A stretch of DNA of 64,000 nucleotides from Haliotis rufescens (Eukaryota). The DNA is taken from positions 62,001-126,000 of the forward strand of contig NW_025964359.1 of NCBI RefSeq assembly GCF_023055435.1, in the 5' to 3' direction. Positions 20,005 through 57,509 of this stretch are shown here, piece after piece; positions within the stretch are counted from its first letter, which is position 1; each line of letters starts with the position of its first letter. The notes below the pieces were generated by a model. That model had not been told where the DNA came from. It saw only the letters and a list, made by a program, of their open reading frames with translations, and made no database searches. Made by a program: the position numbers and the translations under genes.

Positions 20005-20715
20005 GTAGGTATGTTAGATAAATAATAATAATACTAATGATAATAATAATGATAAAAAAATAATAATAATAATAATAATAATAAAAACAATAATAATGTA
20101 AAATGTGTGTAATAAAAGCGACAAACCCTAACCATATTCATAACAAAACTCTGCCAAAAGCAGAATCCACTGTACGATTTCGACTATATCATAAGCATGT
20201 GTTTATGAATTTCTATCAAATAGTGATGGCACCAGGTGTTCGCGAAAAGGTATCCGACCATATCATAATGTGGTGTGGTACATCAGGCACATTTTATCCA
20301 TGTCGGGAATCGAATCAAATCTTTCAGCGTGAGGAGCCAACGCATTATCCACTGTGTATAGAAATTATTAAAACGTCCTCAATGAAGTTTGAATGAAGGG
20401 AACAAATGGTTCAAAATTTTGAGTACGAGTGGGTTTTAACGTCAGGTCATTGTGTTTTCACATTCTAAATGTCTTTTTATATCTTAAGTATTTCAATTTA
20501 ACATGACTTAAGAACCTGATTATTATGTCGTGGGTATACTACATTACAATGGACATTCATGAAGTGAGTTGATGTTAATATCTTGTTTCTGTTTAAGCAA
20601 TTTGTATCACAAAAGATCAAACATGAAAGTCATGATACCAAACATGCCGAAGGGAAAGAAACTGTATTCCAATTTCCATTATCTTTACATATGATTAATA
20701 CTATTAATATTCCAG

Positions 20716-21957: not shown

Positions 21958-22392
21958 GTATAAACTAATGATTTACAAGAAGCTTAAGAGATTTTGCAGT
22001 TTACATCTGTACGTTCCATTGCAACAGTCAAAGTTGGTTCAAATCCCCTGATATTCAGCCAATAAGGTCACACATATTGATATTTTAAAAGTAATAAACT
22101 AAAAAGAATAATTGCGATTTTGTTGCGAATATCAGTTCTCCTACATACCTTTAGTGAATATCCGAGAGAGAGAAATTCGTAGTGTTGTTGCTTTAAGTGT
22201 TTGACAGGTCACCTTCTGTCTTAGCAATTTCGGCTGACCTGTCCCTCTTTGGGACTAATATGTCTGAGTAGGGTTCACATATCTATTGTGAGTTTGGTAT
22301 TCACATAATTTCTGTTTTTGCATTGATATGATTTCTATTTTCGTATATTGATATAATTTCATATTTATCTTTGGCTGCTCTGTTTATATACG

Positions 22393-30363: not shown

Positions 30364-31562
30364 AATGAATGCTATGAGGCAGAGAGCATATGATATGTGT
30401 ACATGTAAGAACAACAAAAGTAATAAGATAACAAAAGTCGGACACTTAACAAGGGCAGCGAACTGATAATTGGCGCTGATTGGTTATTAGCAATAGACAA
30501 TGGAAGCCAACACTTTACAGTAATTGACGCTGATAGCAATGGACTGTTGGAAGCCAGGATTAAATTATCACTGATTGGTAATTGGCAATGGACAATGGGC
30601 AAACGGGAGGCCGGGGGTAAATAGCACTGGCATGTCATTTTGGCATATTAGAGTGACATGTGATGTGCAATAACCAGTTCATGGTTCAAATATGTAATAC
30701 GCCACGAGTATGTTATAAGCATTAAGTGCACTCCTGGTTATGTTAAAAAGTTCTAACGTGAACTAGTCAGCTCGTACATAGACTCACAAAATGGCTTAGG
30801 ACCCATTTGAACCATCCTCGACTTTCTGTGTATGTCTATATATTCTATTATAATAAATAACATGGACCCATTTGCAACCAAAGCTTCGTTTCTATTTCAC
30901 CTATGTCTAACGTAGCACGGGATTTCTCTCCGTCATGAGTGTAATTTAACTTGACGTCATGTAATTTGAATCTGACTCAAAACGAAGCTGATTTAGCGAA
31001 TGGTCCAGGGTATTTATCACAACAGAATGCAGATATAAAAAACATTTCCAATTGATAATCGATGATGCATTTGCACATGTCCGCATTTATTTTGCTCGTA
31101 TACGTATACTTAAAAACGTAAAAGTAAAATTCTCTTTTATGAAAATATATGCAAGAGCCTCAACACCTTTTCGTCGTATAGTACTATTTCTATACGAGAC
31201 TCGCGTCTTATTATTTCGATCTTTTTATTGACGTGGATGGTCCTGCTGGTGGAATATCCCCTGCGGAGGCGTCAGGTTGCAAAGCAAGTTTAATTTCCTT
31301 GAGCACACGGCAAAACACATGTTGAAGCCAATGAAGAATGAAATTATGAAAACAAATGTAGCTGTTTCACCCTCAGGATTCATACTACATTGACAACAGT
31401 CAAACCAAACCGCCTGAGCAGTTTTTGGAGTGGATGGTTAGTGAAAATGAAAACAAAAGTTTCTCTTCATCAATCAGAGTCCAAGATGGACTTAGTGAAC
31501 GCCATCTTGCACGTAGCAGGAGATATATACTGAGTCAAATTAAAAACTTCACATTTTTAAAA

Positions 31563-31568
31563 GTAATC
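31563..31568 (+). repeat. Left 6-bp target-site duplication GTAATC
   Basis: Identical to 43475-43480. Confidence 0.95.
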
Positions 31569-32113
31569 AGTAGTAACGTACATCGGTAATGGACCACTCA
31601 GATTTCTGGGACCGCTCAGATTTCTGGGACCAAGATGGCGGCACATCCGTTTCCGGTCACGTGACCTGCGCAGTGCATGATGGGTACCTGCGCGCGCATG
31701 CAAGATGGCGTCGCATCCGTTTCCGGTGGCGCGCATGCAAGATGGCGTCGCATCCGTGTCCGGTGGCGCGCGCATGCAAGATGGCGTCGCATCCGTTTCC
31801 GGTGGCGTGCGCATGGAAAGAGGGCGTCGCTTCCGTTTCCGGGGAGGAGGAGGAGGGATAGGGGGAAAACCCGGAGGAGCGCCCGTACGAGGGGGAACAA
31901 GATCGACAGGGTTGTTGTTCTTGTGTTGTTCTAAAAATAGAAATAGACGTGGGGTGGTGGTGGGGGTGGTGAAGGGAGGGAGGGAGGGGAGGGAGGGAGG
32001 GGAGGGGAGGAGGGGTGGGTTCACGGTGTGGTGGGGGTGGGTGGGAGGGTCGTCAAAGCAAAGGAGGAAAAGCTGTCTTTCGGGAAAGATGGGTGGCCCT
32101 GAAAAGGGCCGTT
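31569..32113 (+). repeat. Left terminal inverted repeat (545 bp)
   Basis: Reverse complement of 42921-43474 apart from a few substitutions and ~9 nt of indels in the G-tract. Confidence 0.95.
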
Positions 32114-32115
32114 GG
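32090..32115 (-). terminator. Histone-type 3' stem-loop #1 (CCAAC GGCCCT TTTC AGGGCC ACCCA), followed by GAAAGACAG
   Basis: 6-bp stem, TTTC loop and ACCCA tail; ~110 nt downstream of the zinc-knuckle stop, same strand. Confidence 0.9.
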
Positions 32116-32224
32116 AAAACAAACTGGAAACTGGAAACTGGAAACGGCAGGAACACTGGAACACTGGAAAAACTGCAAACGATGGGAAACGGGTAAAAAC
32201 AGTGGGGGCAGCATGACCCATGCG

Positions 32225-32851
32225 TTAGTCACTTTGTTCAGAGGATCTCACTTCTCCATCCTCTACTTCCATCTCATCCTCGGACGGAAGGTGTCGTCGG
32301 CGCTTTGAAACGTGTTTTCGTGAGGGGGACCTGTTCCGTTTTCTTTTCTCTAGACGAGGTGTGATGCCTACCCGGAGTTGTGTGAGACATTCTTTTAGGT
32401 CGAGGACATCGGAATGCATGTCTTCGATGAGATGAAGCACTTGTGCCACGGGTGTCACGGGTGTCACGGGGGCCACGGGGGTCACGGTTGCCACGGATGC
32501 CACGGGTGTCGACGTGGACGGTGTTGCTAACGTTTTCTTTCGACTGGGTTCTGGACAATCTGCAGCGAAATGACCCAGGGCTCCACAGTTGTAACAGCGG
32601 TCCAGGCGATGGGGAGTCTTCTTTCGACGGGGTTCTGGGCAATCTGCAGCGAAATGACCCAGGGCTTCACAGTTGTAACAGGGGCCCTGGTACTGCTTCT
32701 CCTGCTTCTCCTGCTTCTCTTGACTGTTCAGCTTCGGACAGACATAGTGACGGTGACCTTGAGTGTGGCACTCGGTACATGTCACTTCAGGGCAGTACAG
32801 GTAACTGTGACTGTCGGTCTGGCACATCCTACAACTGTATCGAGCTGACAT
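32225..32851 (-). CDS. Four-CCHC zinc-knuckle protein (208 aa) with basic NLS and C-terminal EDGEV motif
   Basis: Four Cx2Cx4Hx4C motifs; start placed at CCATC-ATG-TCA (32851), downstream of the TATA box at 32901-32910 (alternative ATG 32863). The ORF-track extension to 33208 runs through promoter DNA. Confidence 0.85.
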   Translation of the reverse strand: MSARYSCRMCQTDSHSYLYCPEVTCTECHTQGHRHYVCPKLNSQEKQEKQEKQYQGPCYNCEALGHFAADCPEPRRKKTPHRLDRCYNCGALGHFAADCPEPSRKKTLATPSTSTPVASVATVTPVAPVTPVTPVAQVLHLIEDMHSDVLDLKECLTQLRVGITPRLEKRKRNRSPSRKHVSKRRRHLPSEDEMEVEDGEVRSSEQSD

Positions 32852-32900
32852 GATGGGTTTCATAGAATGCAGTGTGTGTGAGTGGCTTCGCTCTTGTTTT

Positions 32901-33165
32901 GTTTTTATAGGAGAGGCACTGACACCCTGCTTCCTGATTGGTTCCCCAGGCAGCGCCCCCGATTGGTTCGTTCCGGGGCCTGGCCCGCACCTCGGTTTTC
33001 CAAAACGGACCGACCCCTGTGTTTCTTTTCCATAGGAAATGGATTTTACCATGGGAGAGAAAGCACAACCCCGGTTCGGCCAATCAGAGCCCCGCCCGGT
33101 CCGAGCGCCGCTTCTGATTGGTCGACCACCCAGGCTTCGGATTGGTCCGATTTCGATCCGGTTTT
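32901..33165 (-). promoter_or_regulatory. Repeated multi-CCAAT + TATA promoter, copy A
   Basis: Several CCAAT/ATTGG boxes and CTATAAAA; homologous to copies B-D. Confidence 0.8.
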
Positions 33166-33400
33166 TATCGGGGTGTGCATTTCGATCCTGTTTTGTTTTT
33201 TTCTTCATCCTACAGACAACATAACACGACTATGCGTTTTTAACAAAAAATTTAATCCCCCTGATCACATGAACCAACACCACAAAACAAAAGTCACAGG
33301 ATGAGGGGGGACATCCCTGTGATTTTTGTGAACACGAGGGAGGGGTGACCGCGAGGGTAGGAACGTCTGACCACTTTGAAAAAAAAACAAAAAAACGTTG

Positions 33401-33931
33401 TCACTTGGGGTGAACAAGACACTCGACTCTTCGTTTCCGTGCTTCTTGGGACACCAAACGTCTGTATTTTTCGTTCACTTCTCCATCAGGACAAAACACA
33501 CACAAGTATTCGCAGGGGACTTTGGCATGCTTCAGATGTTCTTTCCAGGGTTGGTCTGTGGCTTCCCATTGGCGGAGTGCCACACCGCAGCAATAACAGG
33601 TCACACAGTCCCCTCGTCCTGGATAGAAATAGCCAGCCATGGCCATGTCATAAGGGGTCTGGGTCATCTGTTGAGGCCACGTTTTAAAAGACCTCAGACG
33701 TTCTTGAAATGAATCATAGTGGGGATGAGAAGGTTGACACAAGGTGTAAGAAGGAAAAGGTCTCTCCAGAACGTCACCGAGTCGACACCTGTCGTCCATC
33801 AAGAGTGTGTCGTCCATCAAGAGTGAACGTTTTCTCGCTTCTTGTTCTCTCGCCTTTTCAGACACCCACTCGGAATCGGTGACGACATCTCGGGAGGATG
33901 ACATGGCATTCATAGAACGTCTTTGCTCCAT
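33401..33931 (-). CDS. Single-BIR inhibitor-of-apoptosis-like protein 1 (176 aa)
   Basis: ERLRSFKTWP...AMAGYFY...VTCYCCG..LRQWE..DQPWKEH...PCEYL BIR signature; no RING; upstream duplicated CATAAAAG boxes (~33975, ~34027). Confidence 0.92.
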   Translation of the reverse strand: MEQRRSMNAMSSSRDVVTDSEWVSEKAREQEARKRSLLMDDTLLMDDRCRLGDVLERPFPSYTLCQPSHPHYDSFQERLRSFKTWPQQMTQTPYDMAMAGYFYPGRGDCVTCYCCGVALRQWEATDQPWKEHLKHAKVPCEYLCVFCPDGEVNEKYRRLVSQEARKRRVECLVHPK

Positions 33932-34771
33932 GATGACGGTGACTTCACTGAAAGAAGGTCTGAGGGTTCGCCTGCTTTTATGAAACTCTCCACCCTACAC
34001 CCTTCAACGGAAGGTCATGACTTTAGCTTTTATGAAACTCTCCACCTCCTCCATCTCCTCACGTGACGTCATCCTGTGTTTGGGTTGACGGACACACGGC
34101 ATGATCCATGACATGATCCATGACATGGATATGACATGGCACACGGGGAGGGGTGTGGGGATGGATGCGTCCTGGAATGACTGACACCAGGCAGCTGATC
34201 TTTCAAGCATGGCCTTTCTCTTTTATCTATTTTTATTTTAATGTTACACTTTGGTGTGCACTGACATGACAGAGGCACAGACAGACAGACGGACAAACAA
34301 CATCGACGACATCTCAACTCAACCTCTACCCTCGGTTCGGCACTCTATTGGAGTTGAGATCAATCAAGACACAAAGAGTCAGTTCAATCAATCACTGTTT
34401 AATCATGAAAAAACCAATCACAACCGGATACAATGGAAATACGAAAAGTCATTGGAGGAGGGAGTGCTTTGCATGTCCCTACAACCACCACAACAACAAC
34501 AACAACAATAACGCGACAACGTTTTCCTCTTCCATCTTCAAGCTCTTCCATCTTCAAGTCCCTAAGAGGTGGTCCTCCCTCAAACCTGTGAGAGGCCCAA
34601 CCGTTCAACACGTACAGTCTATGGCCTCCCTGAAACAGACATGACACATCACTTGATCACGGTTGCAGCTGGCGTGTTGACAAAGTTCTTCGAGTGAAGA
34701 GGAGGATCACCATAAGATGTGATCCTCAGATGCGATAGGCATGTCATCATGTGTCACTATGCTGTCATAGG

Positions 34772-35816
34772 TCAACATACTATGAGCTCCAGCTCACAGG
34801 CATGACACATCACTTGCCCGCTGTTGCAACTGATGTATCTTAACATGTTGTTGTGTCGGCAAACACGACATTCGCGTTGTAGGGGAGTGAGTTGAGCTTC
34901 TCCATAAGGATCCAGGTCAACGTTGTCATCATCATCATCGTCGCAAACCATGGGCGTACCTGTGGAGTAGACATGAACCTCTTCCGGGGATGCTGGTGAC
35001 CAAGAAGCCTCGAGCAGGGGAAGCGTGTCCAGATCCATGGAAGGGAGAGTGGCCACCTTGAGCGCTTCATGATCATCGAGGTCACCCGTCGCCATCGTCA
35101 CAGGGGCATTCGGTGAATAGATGGGCTCCCGAGGGGTTTGTTCCCACCACTGTTCTAGCACGGACTGGGCTGAACTGACATCAGGGGTCCTGTCAATCAT
35201 AAGGACAGAGTCCATTTAGGATAGGCATAGGTCATGCATATGAATCACATCAAGAATGACTGAGACAAAGAAGAGCAGGGTACTTACAGTTGTTCTTGAG
35301 GAGAGATCTTCAGAGATAATTTCTTCCGTGATCGTCTTTTTGCAGGCGTTGCAGGTGTGGCAGGTTTCAAAAAGGATGTCCCCCTCGTGTCGATGTCTGT
35401 TGTCGCCGCAGTCGTGGTTGCTGTGGCTGCTGTGGTGGTGGTGGTGGTGGGGACTGGCGCTGTGGGGGTGGGGGTGGGGTGGGGGTGGGGGGTGTTGCCG
35501 TTGCTGTGGGGGTCACCACGGCTGTGGGTTTGCGTGTCTTTTTCTTCTGGATCTTCTTGATCGTCTTCTTCGATGTGCCTTTCTCGGGTTCAGTCAGCTT
35601 CCTCATCTTTGAACGTATCTGGTCGCACATCAGGTTGTCGCCCTTCGCACGTAACTTGGCGTACGCGTCGTCGGTCTTCATCTTTAAACACAGCAAGTCG
35701 TACACTTCACCCCACAGTTCAGCAGTCATGTTACCGTTCCCCTCTCCACTGCTTCCTTGGCCACTCATGTCGCTTCGTGTCTTGTCATTCAACCGTTTCG
35801 ACATGTTGTTCGACAT
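34772..35816 (-). CDS. Predicted two-exon protein (~315 aa): basic/Thr-rich N-part, acidic MVCDDDDDD, C-terminal Cys4 zinc finger; one frameshift
   Basis: Intron 35287-35190 (GTAAGT...GACAG, 98 nt) joins KKLSLKISPQEQL to TPDVSSAQ in frame; one missing base in the G-run at ~35476-35479 links this frame to ORF 35367-35816. Confidence 0.65.
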
Positions 35817-36029
35817 GATGTTGTCCGGATGTTCTGTTCGTTGTTGTTGTTGTTGTTGTTTCTTTCCAAGTCTTCACGGAGGTACGTCAACACTTGATGG
35901 TACTCTCTCCAAACACGCGTTTCTTCCAGATAAAACGCCAACAACCAACACAACGTGAGGAACATCAATCAGAGGGGACGATGTTGTTGCTTGGTCCGTT
36001 CAGTGAAAAGTGATGACCGGAGAGCGTCG

Positions 36030-36265
36030 GTCGTATTAAAAGCCACGGAGGTCCTGCTTTCTGATTGGCCCGTTCCGATGTCTGACTTTCACCTTGGTTT
36101 TCCAAACTGGACCGACCCTTGTGTTTCTTTTCCATAGGGTTAGGCTTGTAGCGTGAGAGAGAAAGCACAACCTCGGTTCGACCAATCAGAGGCCACCCTC
36201 GCCCGAGCGCGGCCTCTGATTGGTCGATCATCCAGGCTTCGGATTGGTCCGATTTCGATCCGTTT
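36030..36265 (-). promoter_or_regulatory. Repeated multi-CCAAT promoter, copy B (more diverged, TTTTAATA box)
   Basis: Homologous to copies A, C and D; upstream of ATG 35816. Confidence 0.75.
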
Positions 36266-36318
36266 TTTTCTGTAGGGATCCATGTCGATTCAGTTTCGAT
36301 CCGCTGTCATGAAAAATT

Positions 36319-39300
36319 TTAGTGAAAGTCGTCTCTGTACCCAAAGGGGAGCGTGTCTACAGGTAGCCCTGTGATGTCGTCGTAGACGAGACGTCGCTTG
36401 TCGTACACGGTACGATAGTCTTTTCGGGTGGGTCGGGTCACGAGTGCGTTTTCGTGCCGAGGGCCTTTTCGAATGATCTGATGAGGGTAATCCAAACTGA
36501 TTTTCTCCTCCTCTTTCCCAGGCCGTTGTCCCAGTATCAGTCCTTTCATGGTGTCAAAGTTGAGATGGCGTTGGTTTCGGTAATTCAAAGTGAACCCTCG
36601 CACTTTGCAGGTCGTGCGCGTTCCATCGGGTCTGGGGTTCATTAACTCGTAGCCATAGTTTTTGGGGCCTCCCGACACAAACGTCTTGATGGTGTTTCCG
36701 TCCAGTTCATCCGTAAACTCACCCAACGAATGACCCAGCTCTGGATTCGCGTCGTGGGGTCGATGAATGTAAATGACGCTGTCCGTGTCAAAGTACAACA
36801 CCCTGTGGTCCACCAGGGCAAGGGTCTCGTACAGCTTGAGACGTGCTTGGGCGGTGACCCAAGCAGCGATGGCGACGTTGAAATGAGAATGAGGGGTTTG
36901 GAATTCTTTCTGCTTGGTATAGGTCACTTCCACCATGTGTTCGTTGACAACGACCACATCCTCGATGGTATTGCGTTCATCCCTCCACAAGGCAAAGTAC
37001 TGTACAGTATCGTTCATATACACGTTCTGACTGTAGTCTACCCGTTGCCCAAACTTGCCCCAGAGCGAATTCAGTTGCATCTTGGCAATCGTGCGACGTC
37101 CTGGATTTTTTTCGATGCGGTCCTTGTCCAACCCAATGCCTTCTTTGTCGTAGATCTCCTGGATGTACGCGTTGTGATCCGTACATCCTTCGGGGTATCC
37201 GCTGGCTTCGAGCTTCTCCTTGAAATGTCGATCGATGTAAGTGTCAAAGAGTCCCACTTGCTGGGTGTCGGGGTCATGCTGTGCAAAGGTGTCAAAATGC
37301 CAAACGTCGTAGATCTGAAGCACCCGGTAGTCATACTTCTTCACGGCTTCCTGGAGTTCTACGGTGGCGTACGTCCCCACCCATGACCTCTCTTCGTCCG
37401 TGTGCTCGCAGGGGGAGTCTGACCGGGTATCGGCACACGTGCGGCACAAAGGACAGAGCAGTTTGCCACCCGATCTGTAAGGCAGTAGCGGATGGTAAAG
37501 TCGTTTCGGGGGTAGGACACGGCATTGGATCAGGCCTTTCAGTTCAAACAACGTGTCCACAGGGGGTTGATGGAGAAGGGTCGGGTGTCCCGTGGGAAAC
37601 GCTCCGGTCTTACAAATGTAGGGATAAAGGGAACAAATATCGATGTACTTGATGGTTTCACCTTCTTGGGCTTCGTAGCATAATCGCGTCGCATTGGTGC
37701 GTCCTCCATAGAAGGCATCGCGAGGGTTGAGCGGCCCGGGGACGTGGATACAGCGGGGTCCCTGCAAGAAAGCATGCAGTGCGGAGTCCTCCCGTTGCAT
37801 TTTCGTAAACTCGTGCTCCCACAGGGTGACGATCCGTTTCACCTCAGGGTGTTGACTCAAGAGACTCAAGCGGTAGTGGGTGTCGGTGTAACGGGCTCCC
37901 AACGACGAGCCCAGGACGGGATGCGGTTCTCCACGTCGGGTCTTGTGACAGACCTGGCACCCATGCCAGAAACAGCCCAGGAATTCGTAGACGGTGCCTG
38001 TCGCTGGATCGTAGCCATCCACGGTGTACCGATGTTGACCCCCTCCACACGTGAACTCTTTTTCACCGCCATTCCTAGCGTGCTGGAGGTGCAGATGGGG
38101 GTGCGTTTCCATCAGATAGTGGAGCCAGTGCATACAGGCCTGGGAATAGTTTCTCTTGGGTTGGTAGCCTTGAGATGGGAGAATGGCGATGGTATTGGGT
38201 TTCAGGTCGTGTTTTCGGAAGGATTTGATGGTGAACGCTGCAGCTGTCATCACTTCCACAAAGGGATCCATGCCCACCGAGTGGATGGCGTTCTGTCGGA
38301 AGTCGGCGCATCCCCGTCTCAAAATGTCCACATCGCTTTGGCAGTAGGTTAAAAGTTCTCCTTGTAAGTCGAACAAGGCTCCTTCTTGCACTTTTTGGGT
38401 ATGCCACTGGAGGAAGGCTGTGCGTTCCGCGGGAGACATGCCATCGGGATCGTACGTGACGGCTGGTGGATAGGGACCTCTGTAGGTTTGGTTGACTCTC
38501 GTATTAAAAAAGTGTGGAAAGTACCCTTTCTTCATTTCTTTCAGCCCAAAGCTCTTGGGAAAGGCTTTCAGGGGGTAAGGGATGAAATTTAAGCTGTCTT
38601 CGAAACATAACCGTCCCAGGGTCATTTGCAAAATTTGTTGGTCATGGCGAATCTTGGTGGGGAGTGTCACCAGGAGGGGGGACAGACCCTTCAGGACTAA
38701 GTGTAAATCATAGGATCGTGCATTATGGGCCATCACATAAATGCGATCCTCCTTCGTGACTGTATGGCAGGAGGTGTTCTTGTTCTTTGGCTTCTTTGTT
38801 TTCTCCACTTCCATGACCTCTTCCCCCTCTTCCCCCTCTTCCATCTCCTCCCCCTCTTCCCCCAACTCCTCCCCCTCCTGCTGGGGTGATGCCTGTCGTT
38901 TGGAAGTGTGCTTTCTTGAGGGGGTGTCATCCCGTTTTCTTTTTTTCCCCAGGTGAGCTGTCGTCCCCTTGCGTGTGCTGCCCTCCTCTTCCTCTGGGTG
39001 GGGCTTCTTCTTGGGTATTTCAGACAACGTGGTCAACCACACACACACATCATGTCGCGTGGTGGGGCCTCGAAACACGATCTCACGGCTGGGACCATAC
39101 CCTTCTTCTCTCCATGGACAGTGTTCGCACAAGTTCTTGCTCACTTCACTGATGCATCGTCCACATCCTAGTTGCACCACGCACAAATTTGGAATGTGTT
39201 CCCCCGTGTCTTGCATGCATTCAAAATCGTAGAAGGCGTATTGAACATGGTCTCGTAGGGGATGTTGTTCCTCTTCCCCCTCCTCCTCCTTCTCCGCTTC

Positions 39301-39795
39301 CTCCCCCTCCTCCCCCTCCTCCCCTTCCTCCTCCTCGTTTTCTTCACGGAGAGGCGTCATGTAACAGCGATGATCTGGGGTCATGGGTTCTCGGCACACA
39401 AAGCAGGGATGTTCTTCATCGAAGCACGCGTGGTGAGCCATGGGGGTCTCCAAGACGCGGACCAACTGAAAACAGTTCGGGCACCTGTGAATCGATTGAC
39501 AGGCGCTGGGTTTTCCCTCTGACGGTGACTGGAGATGCCGGGTGTAACACATTGGATTGGGGAACCAACCTTGACATGTCAAGCAAGGGATCCCGTGCTC
39601 TTCCTGGGGTCCGCAATAACTAGAGTAGAAGCAGCGGTAACAGCGGTATTCCTTGGTGCAGGGATGTTTTTCGGGATGGTCGTAACGTTTGTCACAGCGT
39701 TTGCAGTAATGGTTAGAGCCATAAAAAGCGGGCATGGAAGTGATGATCATGATGGTAGAGATGCAGCACGGTGGCGTGGGGTGGAGTCTCATCAC
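36319..39795 (-). CDS. polB: Protein-primed family B DNA polymerase, main part (Cys-rich region, exonuclease, Vsr-like insertion, polymerase)
   Basis: ExoI FYDFEC, ExoII AHNARSYD, ExoIII YCQSDV, YGGRT, motif A DICSLYP, motif B KMQLNSLWGKF, motif C YFDTDS, GPKNY; VDGYD..VYEFLGCFWHGC insertion. Confidence 0.95.
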   Translation of the reverse strand: MMRLHPTPPCCISTIMIITSMPAFYGSNHYCKRCDKRYDHPEKHPCTKEYRCYRCFYSSYCGPQEEHGIPCLTCQGWFPNPMCYTRHLQSPSEGKPSACQSIHRCPNCFQLVRVLETPMAHHACFDEEHPCFVCREPMTPDHRCYMTPLREENEEEEGEEGEEGEEAEKEEEGEEEQHPLRDHVQYAFYDFECMQDTGEHIPNLCVVQLGCGRCISEVSKNLCEHCPWREEGYGPSREIVFRGPTTRHDVCVWLTTLSEIPKKKPHPEEEEGSTRKGTTAHLGKKRKRDDTPSRKHTSKRQASPQQEGEELGEEGEEMEEGEEGEEVMEVEKTKKPKNKNTSCHTVTKEDRIYVMAHNARSYDLHLVLKGLSPLLVTLPTKIRHDQQILQMTLGRLCFEDSLNFIPYPLKAFPKSFGLKEMKKGYFPHFFNTRVNQTYRGPYPPAVTYDPDGMSPAERTAFLQWHTQKVQEGALFDLQGELLTYCQSDVDILRRGCADFRQNAIHSVGMDPFVEVMTAAAFTIKSFRKHDLKPNTIAILPSQGYQPKRNYSQACMHWLHYLMETHPHLHLQHARNGGEKEFTCGGGQHRYTVDGYDPATGTVYEFLGCFWHGCQVCHKTRRGEPHPVLGSSLGARYTDTHYRLSLLSQHPEVKRIVTLWEHEFTKMQREDSALHAFLQGPRCIHVPGPLNPRDAFYGGRTNATRLCYEAQEGETIKYIDICSLYPYICKTGAFPTGHPTLLHQPPVDTLFELKGLIQCRVLPPKRLYHPLLPYRSGGKLLCPLCRTCADTRSDSPCEHTDEERSWVGTYATVELQEAVKKYDYRVLQIYDVWHFDTFAQHDPDTQQVGLFDTYIDRHFKEKLEASGYPEGCTDHNAYIQEIYDKEGIGLDKDRIEKNPGRRTIAKMQLNSLWGKFGQRVDYSQNVYMNDTVQYFALWRDERNTIEDVVVVNEHMVEVTYTKQKEFQTPHSHFNVAIAAWVTAQARLKLYETLALVDHRVLYFDTDSVIYIHRPHDANPELGHSLGEFTDELDGNTIKTFVSGGPKNYGYELMNPRPDGTRTTCKVRGFTLNYRNQRHLNFDTMKGLILGQRPGKEEEKISLDYPHQIIRKGPRHENALVTRPTRKDYRTVYDKRRLVYDDITGLPVDTLPFGYRDDFH

Positions 39796-40573
39796 ACTTG
39801 TACAACAGTCTCTGACCCACCTCTTGACTGTAGACTTTCAGTTGATAATGCAGACGGGTCAAGGCTCGTCCCACGCGTGCGAGGTCGTCCAGACCCCGAC
39901 AGGGGCCTTCGGGCAGGCCAAGGCTTCGAAACAAGGCCCGTGCCCGTATGCCTTGAACGTCGACGCGATCCGTTCTCGTCAGTCTCTTTCGCTGGGCGGT
40001 CCATGCTGGGGTCAGAGGGTGAGGCTTGTGGGCATAATGCTGTGCCACCACCAGGGCCCGTCCCAAACAGGATTGATCTTCGTTCTTGATCCGTACGATG
40101 CACTTTTTGCGTGTTAAAAAAGCTTCGAGTCCAATCACGTTTTTCAGCCGGGGAGCACCACTGCCCGATCCTACCCTGTCGGGATCTGCGACGTGTACTA
40201 AGGTCACATCCATGGTGGCATCGATGTTCAGGTCTTTGTTGGACTGTTGGACTTTTTCCACGGCTTGCAAAATAGTTAGCCCATGGAGATCTTCAAAACG
40301 TCGAAAGGGTATCCGTATGGGTGTGTTCAAAGCGGGATGATCGATACCTAGACCAATACGATCTCCCTTCTGACCTGATATCTGTTCATAAAAGTCATCG
40401 ATCACCCTGTCAAATAAAGCTGGCAGTTCCATGGGGACGCGTTCCGGTGGTACGGTGTTCAAGTAGTCTGGGTTGAAAGTCAAACAATAGGTATGATTAG
40501 CAGTTCTTAACCGTCTGGAGCGGGTGATATCTTTCCTCTCCAAACGATAGGGCGTACTTTGGTTGCTCGTCAT
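39713..40573 (-). CDS. N-terminal part of pPolB (terminal-protein-like region + OTU-like protease), frameshifted from the main ORF
   Basis: IKNEDQSCLGRALVVA (Cys) and LHLYHHDHHF (His) resemble the vOTU catalytic motifs of Polinton pPolB; overlaps the downstream ORF at the expected junction. Confidence 0.8.
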   Translation of the reverse strand: MTSNQSTPYRLERKDITRSRRLRTANHTYCLTFNPDYLNTVPPERVPMELPALFDRVIDDFYEQISGQKGDRIGLGIDHPALNTPIRIPFRRFEDLHGLTILQAVEKVQQSNKDLNIDATMDVTLVHVADPDRVGSGSGAPRLKNVIGLEAFLTRKKCIVRIKNEDQSCLGRALVVAQHYAHKPHPLTPAWTAQRKRLTRTDRVDVQGIRARALFRSLGLPEGPCRGLDDLARVGRALTRLHYQLKVYSQEVGQRLLYKCDETPPHATVLHLYHHDHHFHARFLWL

Positions 40574-40654
40574 GATAACGATGTGTATCTGATGAACGTC
40601 TGTACTCTAAGAGGTGCTGAACGTCTGAGGGATGGACAACCCTTCCCCAAAACA

Positions 40655-40940
40655 GGATCGAAATCGGACCAATCCGAAGCCTGGATGGCCGACCAATCAG
40701 AAGACAGCACCGACCAATCAGAAGACAGCACCCGAACCGAGTTGTGCTTTCTCTCCCATGGTAAAATCCATTTCCTATGGAAAAGAAACACAAGGGTCGG
40801 GTCGTTTTAGAAAACCGAGGTGCGGACCAGGCCCCGGAACGAACCAATCGGTGCGCTGCGTTTTGGACCAACCAGGAAGCAGTGAGTTTCGATCCGGTTC
40901 TTCCCCTATAAAACAAGCGTGGATTCGAGTGGGTCAGTGT
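40655..40940 (+). promoter_or_regulatory. Repeated multi-CCAAT + TATA + Inr promoter, copy C (between divergent pPolB and BIR2)
   Basis: Four CCAAT boxes, TATAAAA at 40907-40913, TCAGT initiator at 40934-40938. Confidence 0.85.
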
Positions 40941-40962
40941 ATGTTACATAAAATCATCTAGA

Positions 40963-41421
40963 ATGGCTGAAACAAAGAAGAGTGGTACGACGACGACAAC
41001 GCGTGGCGAAGATGCGGTGATGGATAGTGCAGAACCTCGTGAATGCTGGAGTAAGAGTCATGCCGAGGAGGCGGTGTCACTGCTCAGTCAAACACCATCG
41101 CACTATTATCTACGCTTTGAAAGAAGGCTCGCTTCGTTTGAGACGTGGCCCACGCAAATGTATCAGACTGCTGAAGAGATGGCCCATGCGGGCTTTGTCT
41201 ACACTCAGGGTGCCGATGGGGTGTGCTGTTTCCAATGTGGGGTGCGGCTGAGACAATGGGCACCCCACGACGATCCTTGGGCGGCACATCACAAGTGGTC
41301 CCCAGACTGCGACTACCTCAAGCTAACCGGGTTGGTGAAACACCAGAAGAAGCTACAACTGCACTATCTCTGCGAAGAGAAACAGAGGTACACGAATGAC
41401 GTAGCACGGCCGGCTGCCTAG
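40963..41421 (+). CDS. Single-BIR inhibitor-of-apoptosis-like protein 2 (152 aa)
   Basis: RRLASFETWP...MAHAGFVY...CFQC-x16-H-x6-C canonical BIR; no RING. Confidence 0.93.
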   Translation: MAETKKSGTTTTTRGEDAVMDSAEPRECWSKSHAEEAVSLLSQTPSHYYLRFERRLASFETWPTQMYQTAEEMAHAGFVYTQGADGVCCFQCGVRLRQWAPHDDPWAAHHKWSPDCDYLKLTGLVKHQKKLQLHYLCEEKQRYTNDVARPAA

Positions 41422-41534
41422 GTTTCCCGTGTCCTGCGTACCCGTTCAAGTTCCCGTTCAAGTTCCTGTTCAAATGTTTTTCTTTTCTTGGTTGGACCCA
41501 CAAGTGGACAGCAGCAGAAAAGTTTTTCTTCCCC

Positions 41535-41560
41535 AAAACGGCCCTTTTCAGGGCCACCCA
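41535..41560 (+). terminator. Histone-type 3' stem-loop #2 (AAAAC GGCCCT TTTC AGGGCC ACCCA), followed by AAAAGACAA
   Basis: Perfect 16-nt hairpin at 41540-41555, ~118 nt after the BIR2 stop; outside the TIRs. Confidence 0.92.
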
Positions 41561-42235
41561 TCTCACCCAAAAGACAACTTTCTTCCTTTGCTTTGCTAAA
41601 CCCTCTGCCCCTCCAAAACAAAGAACCCACATCCTCCCCCTAGACCTCTTGGAGGCACACGTCTAAAAATACAATACATAGATATAAATAGATATTAATA
41701 GAGTTAGATCCATAGATCCATAGAGACACGTAGTACACCGCGTCAAACATCACGTGTGCATGAACACACGCGTCACAGTACGCCTGTCGACCTACACGAG
41801 TGTCAACACCTCGGTATCCTTAAATAATAATAATAATTTGAAAACACACACGTACAGGGTACGACGTTTGCATGGCAACACACAGTACAACCATGACGTT
41901 CACATCGCGACACGAAGTGCATGACGCGTGCAAACGTCACGCAGGTGTATCGATTTTTCTCTATTCATCTCACTACGACACGACTCGATACACACACACA
42001 CAGGACACCACGTTTTGACTGACCACACGTTATTCTATGCATCAACGTCAACGTCTGTTTGAAGACATACACACACACACACGCACACATGACATTCCGA
42101 TTGGCATGGGAGTGACACCACGTACATCGCGTAGGCATTCCCACGTTCATGTCTACCTATGAAGGTCCACCTTCCTTTAGCATTCAGACGACCGTCTACC
42201 TCAAAAAATATCAAGGCTACCCAAGAAGAAAAAAA

Positions 42236-42520
42236 ACGGATCGAAATCGGACCAATCCGAAGCCTGGATGGTCGACCAATCAGAAGCGGCGCTCGGACCA
42301 GACGGGGCTCTGATTGGTCGAACCGGGGTTGTGCTTTCTCTCCCATGGTAAAATCCATTTCCTCTGGAAAAGAAACACAGGGGTCGGTCCGTTTTGGAAA
42401 ACCGAGGTGCAGGCCAGGCCCCGGAACGAACCAATCGGAGCTGCGGGCTGGCGAACCAACCGGGAGGCAGGGTGTCAGTGTCTCTCCTATAAAACAAGCG
42501 TGGATTCGAGTGGGTCAGTG
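42236..42520 (+). promoter_or_regulatory. Repeated multi-CCAAT + TATA + Inr promoter, copy D
   Basis: Four CCAAT/ATTGG boxes, TATAAAA at 42488-42494, TCAGT at 42515-42519. Confidence 0.85.
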
Positions 42521-42553
42521 TCACTTGTAAAAATTGATTGAAAAGAAAGCATC

Positions 42554-42913
42554 ATGATGAGTATCAACAACAACAGCAACAACAACAACAGCACCAGCAA
42601 CAACTACCCCCTGAAAGAAAACTGGGATTTAGAGATTGCTACAGTGGCACAACCTTTGCCCGGGTGTAAAGAAACATTACCATCACCACCACCACCATGG
42701 TCTCCAGCGTGGCAATGTGCCCGGTGCCATGGGGGCCTGCCCGTCTATGCCCTTGGTACAAGGGTACGGGATGGGACTTTCGAGTGCGTCTACTGTAAGA
42801 CCATCCTCAAGGACACCTACGTGCGTCGGTTAACGCACACCAGTAGGTGTCCTGTGAGGAGACAGATGAAAGTCCACCCGTGCCTTTGTACCATGGGATG
42901 CACAACCATGTGA
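42554..42913 (+). CDS. Small Cys-rich zinc-ribbon-like protein (119 aa), function unknown
   Basis: CARC-x19-CVYC; sits exactly between promoter copy D and stem-loop #3; GCATC-ATG start context. Confidence 0.75.
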   Translation: MMSINNNSNNNNSTSNNYPLKENWDLEIATVAQPLPGCKETLPSPPPPWSPAWQCARCHGGLPVYALGTRVRDGTFECVYCKTILKDTYVRRLTHTSRCPVRRQMKVHPCLCTMGCTTM

Positions 42914-42918
42914 GCATC

Positions 42919-42944
42919 AAAACGGCCCTTTTCAGGGCCACCCA
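42919..42944 (+). terminator. Histone-type 3' stem-loop #3 (AAAAC GGCCCT TTTC AGGGCC ACCCA), followed by GAAAGACAG
   Basis: Hairpin at 42924-42939, 10 nt after the stop at 42913; forms the inner edge of the right TIR. Confidence 0.9.
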
Positions 42945-43474
42945 TCTCTCCCGAAAGACAGCTTTTCCTCCTTTGCTTTGACGAGCCTCCCACCCCCACC
43001 CCCCACCACACCGTGAACCCACCCCTCCTCCCCTCCCCTCCCCCTCCCTCCCTCCCCTCCCTCCCTCCCTTCACCACCCCCACCACCACCCCACGTCTAT
43101 TTCTATTTTTAGAACAACACAAGAACAACAACCCTGTCGATCTTGTTCCCCCTCGTACGGGCGCTTCTCCGGGTTTTCCCCCTATCCCTCCTCCTCCTCC
43201 CCGGAAACGGAAGCGACGCCCTCTTTCCATGCGCACGCCACCGGACACGGATGCGACGCCATCTTGCATGCGCGCGCCACCGGACACGGATGCGACGCCA
43301 TCTTGCATGCGCGCCACCGGAAACGGATGCGACGCCATCTTGCATGCGCGCGCAGGTACCCATCATGCACTGCGCAGGTCACGTGACCGGAAACGGATGT
43401 GCCGCCATCTTGGTCCCAGAAATCTGAGCGGTCCCAGAAATCTGAGTGGTCCATTACCGATGTACGTTACTACT
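42921..43474 (-). repeat. Right terminal inverted repeat (554 bp)
   Basis: Reverse complement of 31569-32113; ends ...TTACTACT. Confidence 0.95.
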
Positions 43475-43480
43475 GTAATC
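43475..43480 (+). repeat. Right 6-bp target-site duplication GTAATC
   Basis: Identical to 31563-31568. Confidence 0.95.
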
Positions 43481-43639
43481 CTATATATGATATACAACGG
43501 ACAAATGTATCAGAGAAGGTAATTTTTAATCATTAATGTCCAAAGAAGGCTTTTAATTAACGGTGGTAACCATAATTTGTTCCAAGCACCTACGGTATTC
43601 GGTAATAACATCAACAGTTTAAATCCCAAGCACGAGAAT

Positions 43640-44640
43640 CTGATGGCACACAAGTTCAGTAGCGTGTATGGCCACCATGTGCGTTGACAACTGCCACACA
43701 ACGCCTCCGCATGGACCTTGTGATGCTTGTGAACACATGATTGGGAAGACGACGCCATTGTTGCTGCAAAATGGTGCCAAGAACTTGCAAATTCTGTGGT
43801 TGGTTCTGGAGAGTGCGCAGACTTCTGCCAAGAGCATCCCAGACGTGTTCGATGGGATTGAGGCCGGGAGACCTTGACGGCCAGTCCATGACGTTGACTC
43901 CCGCTTTCTGAAGGAAATTCCTTTGCAAAATTGCTGTGTGGGGTCTGGCATTGTCGTGTTGGAAGATCAAACCGGGTCCATGTGCTGCCATAAAAGGCAG
44001 AAGTTCTTGTGCCAGTGAGTGAGTGAGTGAGTTATTATTTAACGTCACATGGGCAATATTTCAGCCATATCGTGACGAGTCTTGTGCCAGTACCTGGTCG
44101 CGGTAAGCAGCAGCGTTGAGGTTGCCACGGATGACAAGAAGCCTGGAACGTGCATTGCCACAAAAAGCACCCCAACCCATGACACTTCCGCCTCGAAATC
44201 TGTCAACTTCCTGTACACAACACTGGGTGTAACGTTCATGACGGCGCCTCCACACCCTCGCCCTACCATCAGCAAATCGAAGATTAAATCGGGATTCATC
44301 ACTGAAGACGACTTGATTCCAATTCCTCTGAGTCCATCGTAAATGTCGCTGTGCCCACAATTGACGTTGACGTCTGTGTAATTGAATCAGAATTGAATCA
44401 GTATGGCTGAAAACACGTGCGGTATTATGGCCACGTGACCAGTTGCACGTGAAAAAACACTTTTGCCACTAAAGTGCTGTGCACATGATTTTGATCGATT
44501 CACCTGCACAAAAAAGGGTGTTATCTGAAGACAATACGTGTCCATTACTGTTTAAATACACAATAAGGGCCCACAATGATAACTGGTCAAAATGTTAAAA
44601 TTTTAGGATTGTGAAGTTTTTAATTTGGTTCGGTATATAT
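43640..44640 (-). mobile_element. Internally deleted Tc1-like element with a nested SINE tail
   Basis: FSDESRF, QHDNARPH and SPGLNPIEHVW; (GAGT)n insert at ~44016-44079 flanked by duplicated TCTTGTGCCAGT. Confidence 0.85.
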
Positions 44641-48050: not shown

Positions 48051-48310
48051 TGTTTGTGTGGCTGCTTGTACTAGTCCGGACTGATGCCGATTTATAGTGC
48101 TAGCTCACGGAGATACCATGCCACAGTTTAACATGAATACCCCACTCAGACACAGTATACTGACTCCGAGCTGACCAGTCCTTGTTTTAACCCCTTAATG
48201 CCGAGCGCCAGACAGGGTAACAACAAGTACCATCTTCACGCGGCCGGGGATGGAACCCCGAACCTTCCGCTCTCCGGGCGGACGCTCTACCACTAGGCCA
48301 CGGAGGCGGT
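47945..48310 (-). mobile_element. tRNA-derived SINE with (GTGAG)n tail and internal (GT)n
   Basis: A/B-box-like head at the right; GATATTCTTCTGGT duplicated on both sides. Confidence 0.75.
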
Positions 48311-51992: not shown

Positions 51993-54900
51993 TTACAGTA
52001 ACTCGTGCTTTTCCACCACAGCTCCACATGAACACTGAACAGTTTCTTTATCCATCTGTATCTCTGTTTTCTTTAAGCAAACCAAGCATTGGTGTTTCGT
52101 TAGTTCCTGAACATTATAAGCTTCATTACCATGAAACGAGAACGCAAGGTAAAATTGAACACGTTGTCCAGCAAATCTAGTTCCAACCAAACCAGCTCTA
52201 ATTGGAATGAAAAATACCTTAACTGGCACGGAATTCTGTCCGAGGTCTAGGTCTATGTATCCAGACAACCGGTTGCTGTTGGGGTGAGCAATCGTTCCCT
52301 TGCAGACCAAAAGGCTGTGTGGAGTACTCTGTATGTTCCTTCCTTCAATCTGAGCAGATAAACGGCTTCGGGGTATTAGACGCTTAATGCCAGAGTTGTT
52401 CTTTCCAAGCCATTCCTGGGGATATCTTGGTTTTGAAACAGATTTGATGAATTTGTCCATATCGTCCTTTAGCATTTGGGCTTGAACGAGACTCTCACTA
52501 TTTCCTTTGCACTCTGCTGATCCAAAGCCAACAAGGCTCAACACGACAAAGAGGTAGAATGTTGATGTTGGGCTGTGAAGTGTTTCATACCAGTATCTGA
52601 TCTTGCTGAGAACATCTTGTTCTGAATACGTGCTGGGAAAGTGTGGGTGTCGTATGGCAACAAGCCATTCTTTAAAGTCTGACTCAAGCTGCCTCTTGCT
52701 GAAGTCCCCCATCACTGATGCGTCTTTGAAGTTCTCTTCATAGAGATTGATGAACTCAATTATATCTGCTTCTGGAATATTACTGATCTCAAACACACTG
52801 TGGTGACCTTTTCTGGTGTATTTGAGTTTGTTTGCAGCTATCAGCAGTCTCCTTGATGTCACTGACATATTGTCAAGTCTGTGAATGTCAAACATATTTC
52901 TTTCAAACAGCTGATCGTACCAAAGGACGGCTGAATGAAATGTTTGATCAAGATTTCCAGGGTCAATGAGACTGTAACATTCAAGAATCATATCTTCGAT
53001 ATCAGTAATGCTGTCCATGATAAACTCTGCTACTGGTTCGCCATGACGACCATGTTTGGTTAGGAAGCCTGATACTCCACCGTTAGTGTAGTTTCTGTTG
53101 ACAAAATCACATACTTGCAGGCGAACGCGGATTTCACTGGAATATCCATAACACTCTTCATAACCTGAAGGTGCATTTTGCCTGCAATGTGTAAAATAGC
53201 TACAAGCTGTATCTGCATCTCTCACGAGTTCTTCAATTCGAAGGTTAAATTCTCCTTCAGTTGTCTCAGTTTCTGGTTTGCTACCTTGGCTTCTTCCCGT
53301 GTACTTTCCAACACGACGTTGATATATGGTACCATACATGTGGTATATGTGCATCAATGTCAGCTTCCTCCATTCCTCTGTTACAGAGGTAAGTGGACCA
53401 TCGTTCCATTTCTTGCACAGATCAAGGGCATCTTCAAAACATCTCTCTGCCTTGTCCTCTTCTTCTTGTCGGCAGTGTGCATAGAAACGTCCAAGATGAG
53501 CAAGGAAATTTGGATCATCGGGAAAAGAAGATGATAGTCTCCTAAGAACTTCTAGTCTTCCTGTGAATGGTGAATTCATGTCAATGTCACATATCAGTTG
53601 TGAAAAAAGAGGTCTTTTCTTAATTTGAACTTCATTTTCTCCAACATCTTTGTTATCTCTGTAAATGAATGTCCTCGTAAGAATTTTGATTATATTGTGA
53701 GCTGTCAAAGATGACCTGGTCCTCCTTGAACTAAACATGGAAATAAACTCAAGGCAAAACTCCTTTAGATTGTGTTTAGCCTTCTTGCTTAGGGTTTGAA
53801 GCCTTGTGTCTTGTTTGGTGCTTGACCGATTCAAAACTTGTTCCAAAATTTCCTTTGCAAGGTAGTAATTGCTGATCCGTATGTTCTTTTCCCGACCATC
53901 GGATGCATCTTCAACAACAAACTCCATGATTGGGTATGGAAAGTCATCTATACATACATCAAAGTTTGACTGTTTTCCCAAAAGTCGAGCAAACACTTGA
54001 CATGGCATGGACGTCTGACCATAGAAATATACAAGTGACAGGTAACCGAGGATCTTCTGCCATGACAAAAGGTGCCTTGTGGGGTTTTCCTCCAACCGAA
54101 GATACCCTTTCACATATGTTTCTATTCCTCTGAACTCGTGATGATACACTGCCATACCGAATTCATACATCACATGATGCCTCTTTTTCTGTTGAACATC
54201 TTTGCACATTTTGGATAGTACCTTTTTCCTATTATCTTCTTGACATCTTTCAAGGAATTTGAAAGAAAGGATTTTGGCTTCGTCTTCTGTTACTTCTCCT
54301 CTTAACCAAAATTTGTTGTCTTTTGGACGTTGAAGTGGCTCTTTTATTGCATAAGGATAACGTTTTGCATAGATGACAATGATGCATCCTGATTTCAATT
54401 TCTTCATAATTTGCTTCACACGAGGTTCATCTTCCCCGTCAATCAAAAGAACAACTGGGAGGCCAGAAACATCGTACAGATATTGTATTTTTGCCAAAAC
54501 TTCCTCAATCAATATGCCAGGCCTCTGTTTAAGTTGACAACATGGACATATCTTTCTCAATTCCCACAATATTCGTTGCGCTAGTGTTGTTCCTCCAGCA
54601 CCGGGGGCATGAAATATTGTGACAGTAGCACTTCTAAATTCCTTAATGAGTTTCTGCTCTACATGTTCAATGATATATTTCATGATGTCTCTTTCAACAT
54701 CAACGTGTGTTGTTCCAAAGGCGTATCTGGCACACCAGTGAAGTGACCCCCCCTTGAAGAAACAATCCACTTCTTTTGTCAGTTCTTCAACATCAGCTTC
54801 CCCTTTAGTGTACGGACTGGACAAGTACAGAACCACTAAGTCCTCACGTAGCCAAGCTGCATCTTTGTCTGTTACATCAGCATGCATATGACTTTCTTGC

Positions 54901-57334: not shown

Positions 57335-57509
57335 CTGTAATACACAACACAAAGAGAAAACTACTTGAAGAAACGTTTACAAGCTTTGCAAGTATTTAGA
57401 TCAGTAAAATAATTTATGTGGAATACTTGTCACTTCATGATCATTTCTATAAAACACATATATCAGACAGCGACAGGACAATATATATTTTCTAGTGTTT
57501 GTTGAAATA

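Follow-up and report, generated by a model that had tools for sequence, protein, structure and literature searches.

Non-histone genes of a Polinton-derived element in abalone carry a shared CCAAT/TATA block and histone-type 3' end signals

We note that a 64,000-nucleotide (nt) stretch of the genome of the abalone Haliotis rufescens (contig NW_025964359.1, positions 62,001 to 126,000; hereafter the window) contains a Polinton/Maverick-derived mobile element with six genes: ORF A (ORF, open reading frame), BIR gene 1, the spliced gene B, a protein-primed DNA polymerase B, ORF C and ORF D. Four homologous blocks, A to D, with the anatomy of an RNA polymerase II (Pol II) promoter head ORF A, gene B, ORF C and ORF D, and behind each of the three single-ORF genes in this set (A, C and D) lies a stem-loop of the type found in histone messenger RNAs (mRNAs), although the products are a zf-CCHC protein, a BIR protein and an unnamed zinc-binding protein rather than histones. 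Coordinates are collected in Table 1.

The element has terminal inverted repeats of about 550 bp (left against right 97.5% over 555 columns), which fall within the 100-1500 bp of Polintons, together with ends of the (AGT)2/(AG)3 type and a target duplication in the 5-8 bp range; (AGT)2 termini, a 6-bp target duplication and long terminal repeats are described as hallmarks of the Polintons/Mavericks, or adintoviruses (PMC8097293, PMC10748475). It also encodes the protein-primed polymerase B common to this group, which falls in the gastropod clade of our polymerase tree, though it is frameshifted in the window copy. In contrast to Polintons, which span 13-25 kb with intronless genes, the element measures 11.9 kb, one of its genes is spliced, and no integrase, capsid, protease or packaging ATPase was found. 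A Pfam search of eight element ORFs and 42 further stop-to-stop frames (a part of all frames) gave no match to the integrase family rve, and the integrase of a second Polinton contig described below, L001, found nothing in the window as a query. The capsid-like and protease-like ORFs of L001, so labelled tentatively for where they lie and for their matches to other loci, had no significant tblastn match to the window; Pfam is a weak test for capsid genes, as it also misses the capsid-like ORFs of L001. For the ATPase there was no Pfam match among the element frames and no room between genes (the widest intergenic gap is 628 bp), no ATPase query having been searched. Because none of these four functions was found, we infer that the element is a Polinton derivative needing a helper for integration and not a complete Polinton. 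Two genes, the polymerase and gene B, are frameshifted in the window copy relative to homologs, through either assembly error or decay. Judged by the member counts of their protein clusters (polymerase 17 and 10, gene B 37), the element suggests a multicopy family. The element itself sits within a Tc1/mariner-like remnant (31523-31568 and 43475-44640, with DDE_3 at 43659-43991), and a 40-bp inverted match joins its two flanks.

Table 1. Features of the element, by position in the window (aa, amino acids; bits refer to the Rfam model RF00032)
Feature	Position	Strand	Details
Polinton/Maverick-derived element	31569..43474	.	11,906 bp; AGTAGT...ACTACT termini
Target-site duplication, left	31563..31568	+	GTAATC, 6 bp
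Target-site duplication, right	43475..43480	+	GTAATC, 6 bp
Left terminal inverted repeat	31569..32113	+	inner end is the gene A stem-loop and downstream element
Right terminal inverted repeat	42921..43474	-	
Stem-loop A with purine-rich element	32070..32115	-	hairpin 32110-32095; 38.2 bits (gathering 34); 114 nt past ORF A stop
ORF A	32225..32863	-	212 aa, single ORF, CCHC zinc knuckle; Pfam PF00098, E 1e-13
Predicted promoter block A	32903..33169	-	CCAAT 33145, 33121, 33084 (inverted), 32966, 32941; TATAAAA 32909
BIR gene 1	33401..33931	-	176 aa; Pfam PF00653, E 2e-20; no block
Gene B	34237..35816	-	exon 1 35816-35288, intron 35287-35190, exon 2 from 35189
Predicted promoter block B	~36030..36269	-	CCAAT 36247, 36223, 36186 (inverted), 36068; TTTTAATA 36041; initiator-like A 36011
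Protein-primed DNA polymerase B	36319..40573	-	Pfam PF03175, E 8e-35; two frames, break near 39750-39765
Predicted promoter block C	40649..40940	+	CCAAT 40669, 40693, 40714, 40844 (CCAAC 40868); TATAAAA 40907; initiator A 40936
ORF C	40963..41421	+	152 aa, single-BIR (IAP-type); Pfam PF00653, E 7e-23; PDB BIR domains
Stem-loop C with purine-rich element	41535..41580	+	hairpin 41540-41555; 36.8 bits; 118 nt past ORF C stop; internal
Predicted promoter block D	42228..42521	+	CCAAT 42252, 42276, 42313 (inverted), 42431 (CCAAC 42456); TATAAAA 42488; initiator A 42517
ORF D	42554..42913	+	119 aa, small Cys/His-rich zinc-binding protein, unnamed family
Stem-loop D with purine-rich element	42919..42964	+	hairpin 42924-42939; 35.3 bits; 10 nt past ORF D stop

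When each block was compared with the whole window by blastn, the four homologous copies reported in a first-pass annotation of this DNA were recovered at 75-93% identity over 205-299 nt, and no fifth was found in the other ~63 kb. Pairwise identities are 93.3% over 267 nt for A-D, 84.3% over 210 for B-D, 84.1% over 239 for A-C, 81.3% over 299 for C-D, 80.9% over 235 for A-B and 74.6% over 205 for B-C (E 1e-28 to 1e-113), and all four copies are confined to the element, with none in the 52 kb outside it. The annotation's count of about four CCAAT boxes per block also stands: there are five in A and four in each of B, C and D, with CCAAC in C and D where A has its fifth box, and the third box has the opposite orientation in copies A, B and D, its place in C being taken by a forward tandem duplicate. 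The extended NF-Y consensus is RRCCAAT-S. Together the blocks (1093 bp) hold 17 of the 139 CCAAT pentamers of the window, and all 17 fit RRCCAATC as against 11 of the 122 others (13 of 17 fit RRCCAATSR). Because the block copies are homologous these 17 boxes represent about five positions and not 17 independent events, and some of the five derive from internal duplication; the enrichment is still far from chance. As in NF-Y multi-CCAAT promoters, the boxes are extended, several in number and located upstream of a predicted start site.

Of the core sequences, GGTAAAATCCATTTCC occurs in A, C and D only, and GGAAAAGAAACAC is kept in all four blocks and found nowhere else in the window. The TATA box is TATAAAA in A, C and D and a variant in B. 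A TCAGT initiator, with its A 29 nt past the TATA box, is present in C and D as had been noted, and an initiator-like TCACTTT in B, with its A 30 nt past the TATA variant, had been missed; block A matches neither of the two initiator patterns tested. All four homologous NCBI gene models of ORF A, and all five of gene B, start behind the block and not inside it. With extended CCAAT boxes, a TATA box and an initiator at the right distance, the block is thus built like a Pol II promoter, and we regard it as very probably functioning as one.

Two further motifs were observed in and around the blocks. GGAANNGAAA, presumably an Ets-IRF composite-like site, is invariant in all four, at 33031(-), 36133(-), 40779 and 42366 (four of its seven occurrences in the window), and in A, C and D it overlaps a TTTCC-NNN-GGAAA palindrome unique to these blocks in the window. 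GATCGAAA lies at the 5' edge of every block and also beside or within three of them (33158, 33187, 36260, 36301, 40656, 40894 and 42239; seven of 13 window occurrences).

The 3' ends of the single-ORF genes carry the main weight of this report. The Rfam model Histone3 (RF00032) has three matches above its gathering threshold in the 64 kb, and these lie behind ORFs A, C and D. Each comprises a perfect 6-bp stem, followed by ACCCA and by AAAGAC starting 15 nt past the stem. The latter agrees at five of six positions with AAAGAG, the core that pairs with human U7 RNA (PMC11417402). The hairpin forms in three of three folds, with z scores of -0.9 to -2.6 that are not strong alone, and a matching stem-loop pattern arose three times in 300 shuffles of the window. 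No AATAAA or ATTAAA was found in the 526, 675 and 535 nt past hairpins A, C and D, respectively, so the three genes share with histone genes both the 16-nt stem-loop and the combination of an intronless ORF with no poly(A) signal. Because hairpins A and D form the inner ends of the terminal inverted repeats, they count as one and are not independent. The internal hairpin C is identical to both at 24 of 24 positions, and the next 36 columns agree at 30 and 31; this contrast between hairpin and flank gives p 0.04 and 0.07, values that depend on the window chosen and become smaller with longer windows. In P0124, a homolog of ORF A from H. rufescens that is more distant (61-66% identity), all 15 of 15 residues read across the DNA of the stem-loop agree, and the hairpin is therefore kept in at least one other copy.

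Hairpins are found solely behind single-ORF genes. The first-pass annotation had linked the three TATAAAA copies to three stem-loop genes, and Rfam confirms a stem-loop behind each of the three; it had likewise assigned the diverged copy B to an intron-containing gene with no stem-loop, and that intron is backed by homologous gene models: of five Haliotis homologs, three have the same junction, one uses an alternative acceptor and one is unspliced. Its cassette of promoter, single ORF and histone stem-loop therefore holds for A, C and D, with the downstream element as an addition. Based on these signals in the DNA, we consider histone-type 3' processing of the A, C and D transcripts to be likely.

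A second Polinton lineage shows the same arrangement at the 3' end. A polymerase scan of a bacterial genome collection returned 19 contigs (103 kb, mostly partial), many of which are apparently eukaryotic Polintons binned into metagenome-assembled genomes, and one of the 19, L001, whose polymerase is 36% identical to that of the window, has a Histone3 match above the gathering threshold. L001 carries integrase (rve) and TBP genes according to Pfam, and at 8042-8400 an 89-aa C2H2 zinc-finger ORF that is divergent from the TBP-like gene. The stem-loop lies 28 nt past the C2H2 stop with AAAGAG at +16, its loop sequence differs from that of the window hairpins, and no histone ORF was found on the contig. 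Upstream, this gene has a different promoter with one CCAAT box and three TGACGTCA, which are palindromes like the cAMP response element (CRE). In the polymerase tree, for which 18 of 120 protein matches were used and five of the 19 loci were omitted (four too short, one with no match), L001 forms a group with L002 and L008 (100/99) that lies outside the gastropod clade (97/91) to which the window polymerase belongs. An Rfam E-value scan of seven of the 19 contigs gave no further Histone3 match; the survey of all 19 also covered long dispersed internal repeats, and a phage collection yielded one weak and uninformative archaeal-virus polymerase match. The distant L001 thus combines a histone stem-loop with an unlike promoter, so that histone likeness is supported for the 3' end.

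We favor, as the likely reading, that the block is a strong, host-type Pol II promoter which belongs to the element and has been copied within it in front of four accessory genes; joined to the histone-type 3' end, it would provide such genes with a reusable expression frame. NF-Y would bind the CCAAT boxes, and transcription would start about 30 nt past the TATA box; SLBP and the U7 small nuclear ribonucleoprotein would then cleave the A, C and D transcripts past the hairpin, and the resulting mRNAs, which would lack poly(A), might accumulate in replicating cells or oocytes. In this way a self-synthesising element could obtain anti-apoptotic (inhibitor of apoptosis, IAP) and zinc-finger proteins when copying itself, and hairpin cleavage would end the A and D transcripts at the terminal repeats' inner margin. 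Block C would probably also fire backwards into the polymerase gene, which is head-to-head with it (ATG 75 bp from the block and 96 nt from the first box) and has neither a TATA upstream nor a block in the sense strand. Gene B, because it is spliced, would combine the block promoter with ordinary polyadenylation (ATTAAA at 34403 and 34242, AATAAA at 34237, no stem-loop), and the polymerase message, for which no poly(A) signal occurs before 34403, probably shares the poly(A) site of gene B. S-phase co-regulation of the cargo genes is possible, though we lean slightly towards doubting it.

The frame also offers a possible route for the exchange of cargo. Recombination between copies could swap the ORFs because the promoter and stem-loop arms are common and the ORFs between them unrelated; copies A and D, for instance, have both arms in common around unrelated ORFs. 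One window and one predicted protein point to such recombination. In that protein, model P0003, the N-terminus reads as pieces of the block in antisense that precede a further copy of the polymerase, with 86% identity to block B over 28 residues and then 9 of 9 residues to block A further on. Within the window, block D is A-like up to the TATA box (46 C-only against 3 A-only columns) and C-like past it (22 A-only against 2 C-only columns). Indel columns enter these counts although they are not independent of one another, and a p value computed from the counts is not to be taken as a probability. Cassette swapping is, in our view, a finely balanced proposal to be held tentatively. Nearly balanced too, and put forward with the same caution, is the broader proposal that animal Polintons in more than one lineage express non-histone accessory genes via the SLBP/U7 pathway as replication-coupled mRNAs lacking poly(A), with a frame in abalone that swaps unrelated ORFs through homologous recombination, in an integron-like manner without a recombinase.

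Several observations weigh against these readings. Typical histone mRNAs have the stem-loop nearer the stop codon than the 114-118 nt seen for A and C, and weak poly(A)-like hexamers lie 113-128 nt past hairpin C. On L001 an AATAAA occurs 70 nt past the hairpin, so that the C2H2 gene possibly has two kinds of 3' end, and AGTAGT with left-end-like motifs begins 82 nt past the hairpin, so that this gene may belong to a different element. A looser hairpin scan of all 19 contigs, mostly partial, found no stem-loop in 18 of them, and none of the 19 has a block match or a CCAAT cluster (at most two RRCCAATC per 300 bp). The block was described as one per gene, which fails for two of the six genes, BIR gene 1 and the polymerase in its sense strand. 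Conservation of the boxes above background is weak: for 8-mers p is 0.28 with four copies and 0.11 with A, B and D, and the pentamers of boxes 1, 2 and 4 reach p 0.02 only after omission of 38 columns rearranged in C. Only six informative two-against-two columns exist among the four blocks, too few to give a gene-conversion test any power, and the switch in block D at the TATA box is equally explained by A alone having gained a new start region. The window copy may itself be silent, with two of its genes frameshifted.

The first-pass annotation linked multiple NF-Y CCAAT boxes to cell-cycle and histone promoters. NF-Y cell-cycle (G2/M-type) promoters have boxes about 30-33 nt apart and are usually TATA-less, and the spacings in block A are 24, 37, 118 and 25 nt with a TATA box present, which does not fit the cell-cycle pattern; moreover the block heads a spliced gene with poly(A) signals and the stem-loop gene of L001 has another promoter. 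The proposed mimicry of a histone gene is thus supported for the 3' end and not for the promoter, and we regard the annotation as right in its anatomy and partly supported in its meaning.

The most serious alternative, which we nevertheless consider unlikely, is a generic strong promoter, duplicated internally and with no special timing, accompanied by a hairpin acquired once from a histone 3' untranslated region that is at most a convenient terminator or stabiliser. On this view the copies arose incidentally, as the element decayed, through inverted duplication and ectopic recombination. Consistent with this are the symmetry of A and D (93%) within two arms, the location of two of the three hairpins in the terminal repeats, the box conservation barely above background, a spacing unlike the cell-cycle pattern and the use of the block by the spliced, presumably polyadenylated gene B; in addition, multiple CCAAT boxes with a TATA box are reported for the replication-independent H3.3B promoter (PMC6314538), and CCAAT boxes are abundant in LTR12 (PMC11417402). 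Yet hairpin C is invariant while its flanks diverge, block C lost an inverted box and gained a forward one, hairpins stand behind single-ORF genes only and never behind the spliced gene, and the second Polinton lineage places a hairpin with another loop sequence behind an unrelated ORF.

Other explanations concern the block alone. It might be a DNA-level cis element for replication or packaging that stands before genes by chance, and the terminal and packaging repeats of adenoviruses are indeed arrays of host-factor binding sites; the block is dispersed, well conserved and palindromic in places (an inverted CCAAT pair, and TTTCC-NNN-GGAAA in A, C and D). Every block nevertheless faces the ATG beside it, with its TATA and initiator spaced as in a promoter, the terminal repeats carry motif arrays of their own, and protein-primed replication origins lie at the termini, so that this alternative seems to us improbable. 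Slightly less credible still is a MITE (miniature inverted-repeat transposable element) or other dispersed host repeat inserted four times, which the first-pass annotation had named as the finding that would overturn its reading. Four dispersed copies in both orientations agree with a MITE, but there are none in the 52 kb of flanking DNA, in which other host repeats turn up as many as eight times, the block edges have neither terminal inverted repeats nor target duplications, and at another locus (P0003) block-like sequence again adjoins a polymerase; within the window we reject this reading. We also reject a shared coding segment (an N-terminal exon), the least probable by some way, despite one stop-free sense frame in each of the four blocks and a 327-aa ORF that continues from block A into ORF A: the codon differences between blocks A and D are one synonymous and 15 non-synonymous, B and C contain frame-changing indels, and the block translation is present in none of the four homologs of ORF A, whose starts lie past it.

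With the element's own promoter and histone-type 3' end as the preferred reading, the closest known systems each share a part of the arrangement. Replication-dependent histone genes have in common with it the intronless ORF, the 16-nt hairpin, ACCCA, the purine-rich element about 15 nt on, the lack of a canonical poly(A) signal and a TATA box with CCAAT boxes (PMC6314538, PMC5011920, PMC6210712); they differ in that the products of the window ORFs are zinc-knuckle, BIR and zinc-finger proteins, in that these genes belong to a mobile element and not to a histone cluster, and in that two window hairpins are more than 110 nt from the stop. Apart from replication-dependent histone mRNAs, cells are described as having no known mRNAs that lack poly(A), and SLBP crosslinking and immunoprecipitation (CLIP) in human cells gave no real non-histone target (PMC4604434); cleavage by SLBP and U7, and replication-tied poly(A)-less messages, are established for histones (PMC4604434, PMC6314538, PMC5011920). 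LTR12/HERV1 is likewise a mobile element with a multi-CCAAT NF-Y promoter and a link to U7 small nuclear RNA, but it is a retroelement in which U7-complementary motifs act in transcriptional repression and not in 3' cleavage (PMC11417402), with one promoter per long terminal repeat as compared to one per cargo gene in four genes here. Virophages and Polinton-like viruses also place one motif upstream of several genes in a small virus of the pPolB type, though theirs is 8 bp long and read by a giant helper virus (10.1101/2022.07.28.501842) as compared to a block of 200-300 bp with host Pol II elements.

For adintoviruses, homologs of IAP and accessory genes with zinc motifs are reported upstream of the polymerase (PMC8502044), and the main text of that paper contains neither "promoter" nor "stem-loop"; a four-fold promoter of 200-300 bp with histone-type 3' ends goes unmentioned for known Polintons/Mavericks in the portions of the literature consulted. 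A 2026 preprint on the evolution of histone 3' ends lacks "transpos", "polinton" and "non-histone" in its accessible text and notes that no histone 3'-end processing proteins are reported in large DNA viruses (10.64898/2026.10.14.759114). Our search of the open-licence literature, in the text available, found no prior report, which subscription papers, Repbase reports or supplementary genome maps could hold.

If the reading is correct, a mobile element or virus exploits the histone 3'-end pathway, and the rule that only histone messages use it would end. The weightiest part of our findings is that two distant Polinton lineages have non-histone genes whose histone-type 3' signals are complete, and the repeated promoter frame comes second; such natural genes would be U7-processing substrates with which one could ask what U7 needs beyond the hairpin, for instance the histone locus body or promoter identity, and gene B and BIR gene 1 represent built-in polyadenylated controls. 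It would also offer an explanation of a possible S-phase timing of Polinton genes, and predicts that poly(A)-selected RNA sequencing misses these transcripts, so that Polintons look more silent than they are. The common promoter and terminator arms suggest a route of accessory-gene turnover in Polintons. If promoter duplication alone holds, the locus would be a modest structural curiosity.

The gene products merit a brief description. ORF A has four Haliotis homologs that start at or just past its ATG, all four with the motif LYCPE, whose Cys belongs to the zinc knuckle. The polymerase is 93% identical to H. rufescens and H. cracherodii proteins and 38-47% identical to many invertebrate and adintovirus polymerases. 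For gene B, which has a frameshift within a G/T-rich run of exon 1 in the window copy and an acidic stretch and Cys-rich end in exon 2, there is no Pfam family above cut-off and no Atlas match; its two ends may resemble a Myb/trihelix domain and a TFIIB-type zinc ribbon. Its leader contains an upstream ATG, and its 3' end is tandemly duplicated (34560-34835, minus strand), with homologs finishing in either version. BIR gene 1 has an unrelated upstream region with two tandem CATAAAA units and a site that we take to be CRE/E-box-like, and an ATTAAA at 33256. Ahead of ORF C a six-codon upstream ORF (40941-40961, plus strand) begins 5 nt past the predicted start and ends before the BIR ATG. ORF D has five relatives with a common Cys/His pattern among eight matches and no Pfam family; none of the folds in two libraries matched its predicted model (pLDDT 73, six sequences) at E<=0.001, and Atlas look-alikes of an ORF D homolog are unnamed small zinc-binding proteins. 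In the adintovirus "Oncoid" signature, LXCXE precedes a CK2 site in the neighbourhood of paired CXXC (PMC8502044); the corresponding stretch of gene B, (L/M)VCDD ahead of its acidic run and Cys-rich end, is not canonical.

Elsewhere in the element, the terminal repeats (31630-31842 and 43201-43411) are dense in AAGATGGCG, with four in each and eight of the nine window occurrences, and also hold GCGCATGC, CCGGAA and GTCACGTGAC; we take these motifs to be YY1-, NRF1-, ETS- and E-box-like, respectively, and the same set follows an AGTAGT at 8438-8570 of L001. Between hairpin C and block D, a 577-bp spacer (41651-42227) with CA repeats, TGACGT sites and no long ORF might be the leftover of a lost cassette. 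In the host DNA, a single ORF of 1583 aa resembling SAMD9 lies 8.5 kb from the element (51993-56744, minus strand), with a PDB match at E 7e-11 over residues 655-795 and weak AlbA_2 and TPR matches, and two paralogous host genes at 7692-11439 and 19719-21968 (plus strand) have PAN/MANEC-like starts and coding regions of 51-54 nt tandem repeats. The remaining repeats include an inverted pair of Tc1-like copies (14998-15683 and 57504-58214), a tRNA-like Rfam match at 48245-48300 that is probably the head of a short interspersed nuclear element (SINE), one of many SINE-like repeats in the window, and fragments of long interspersed nuclear elements at 61447-62885.

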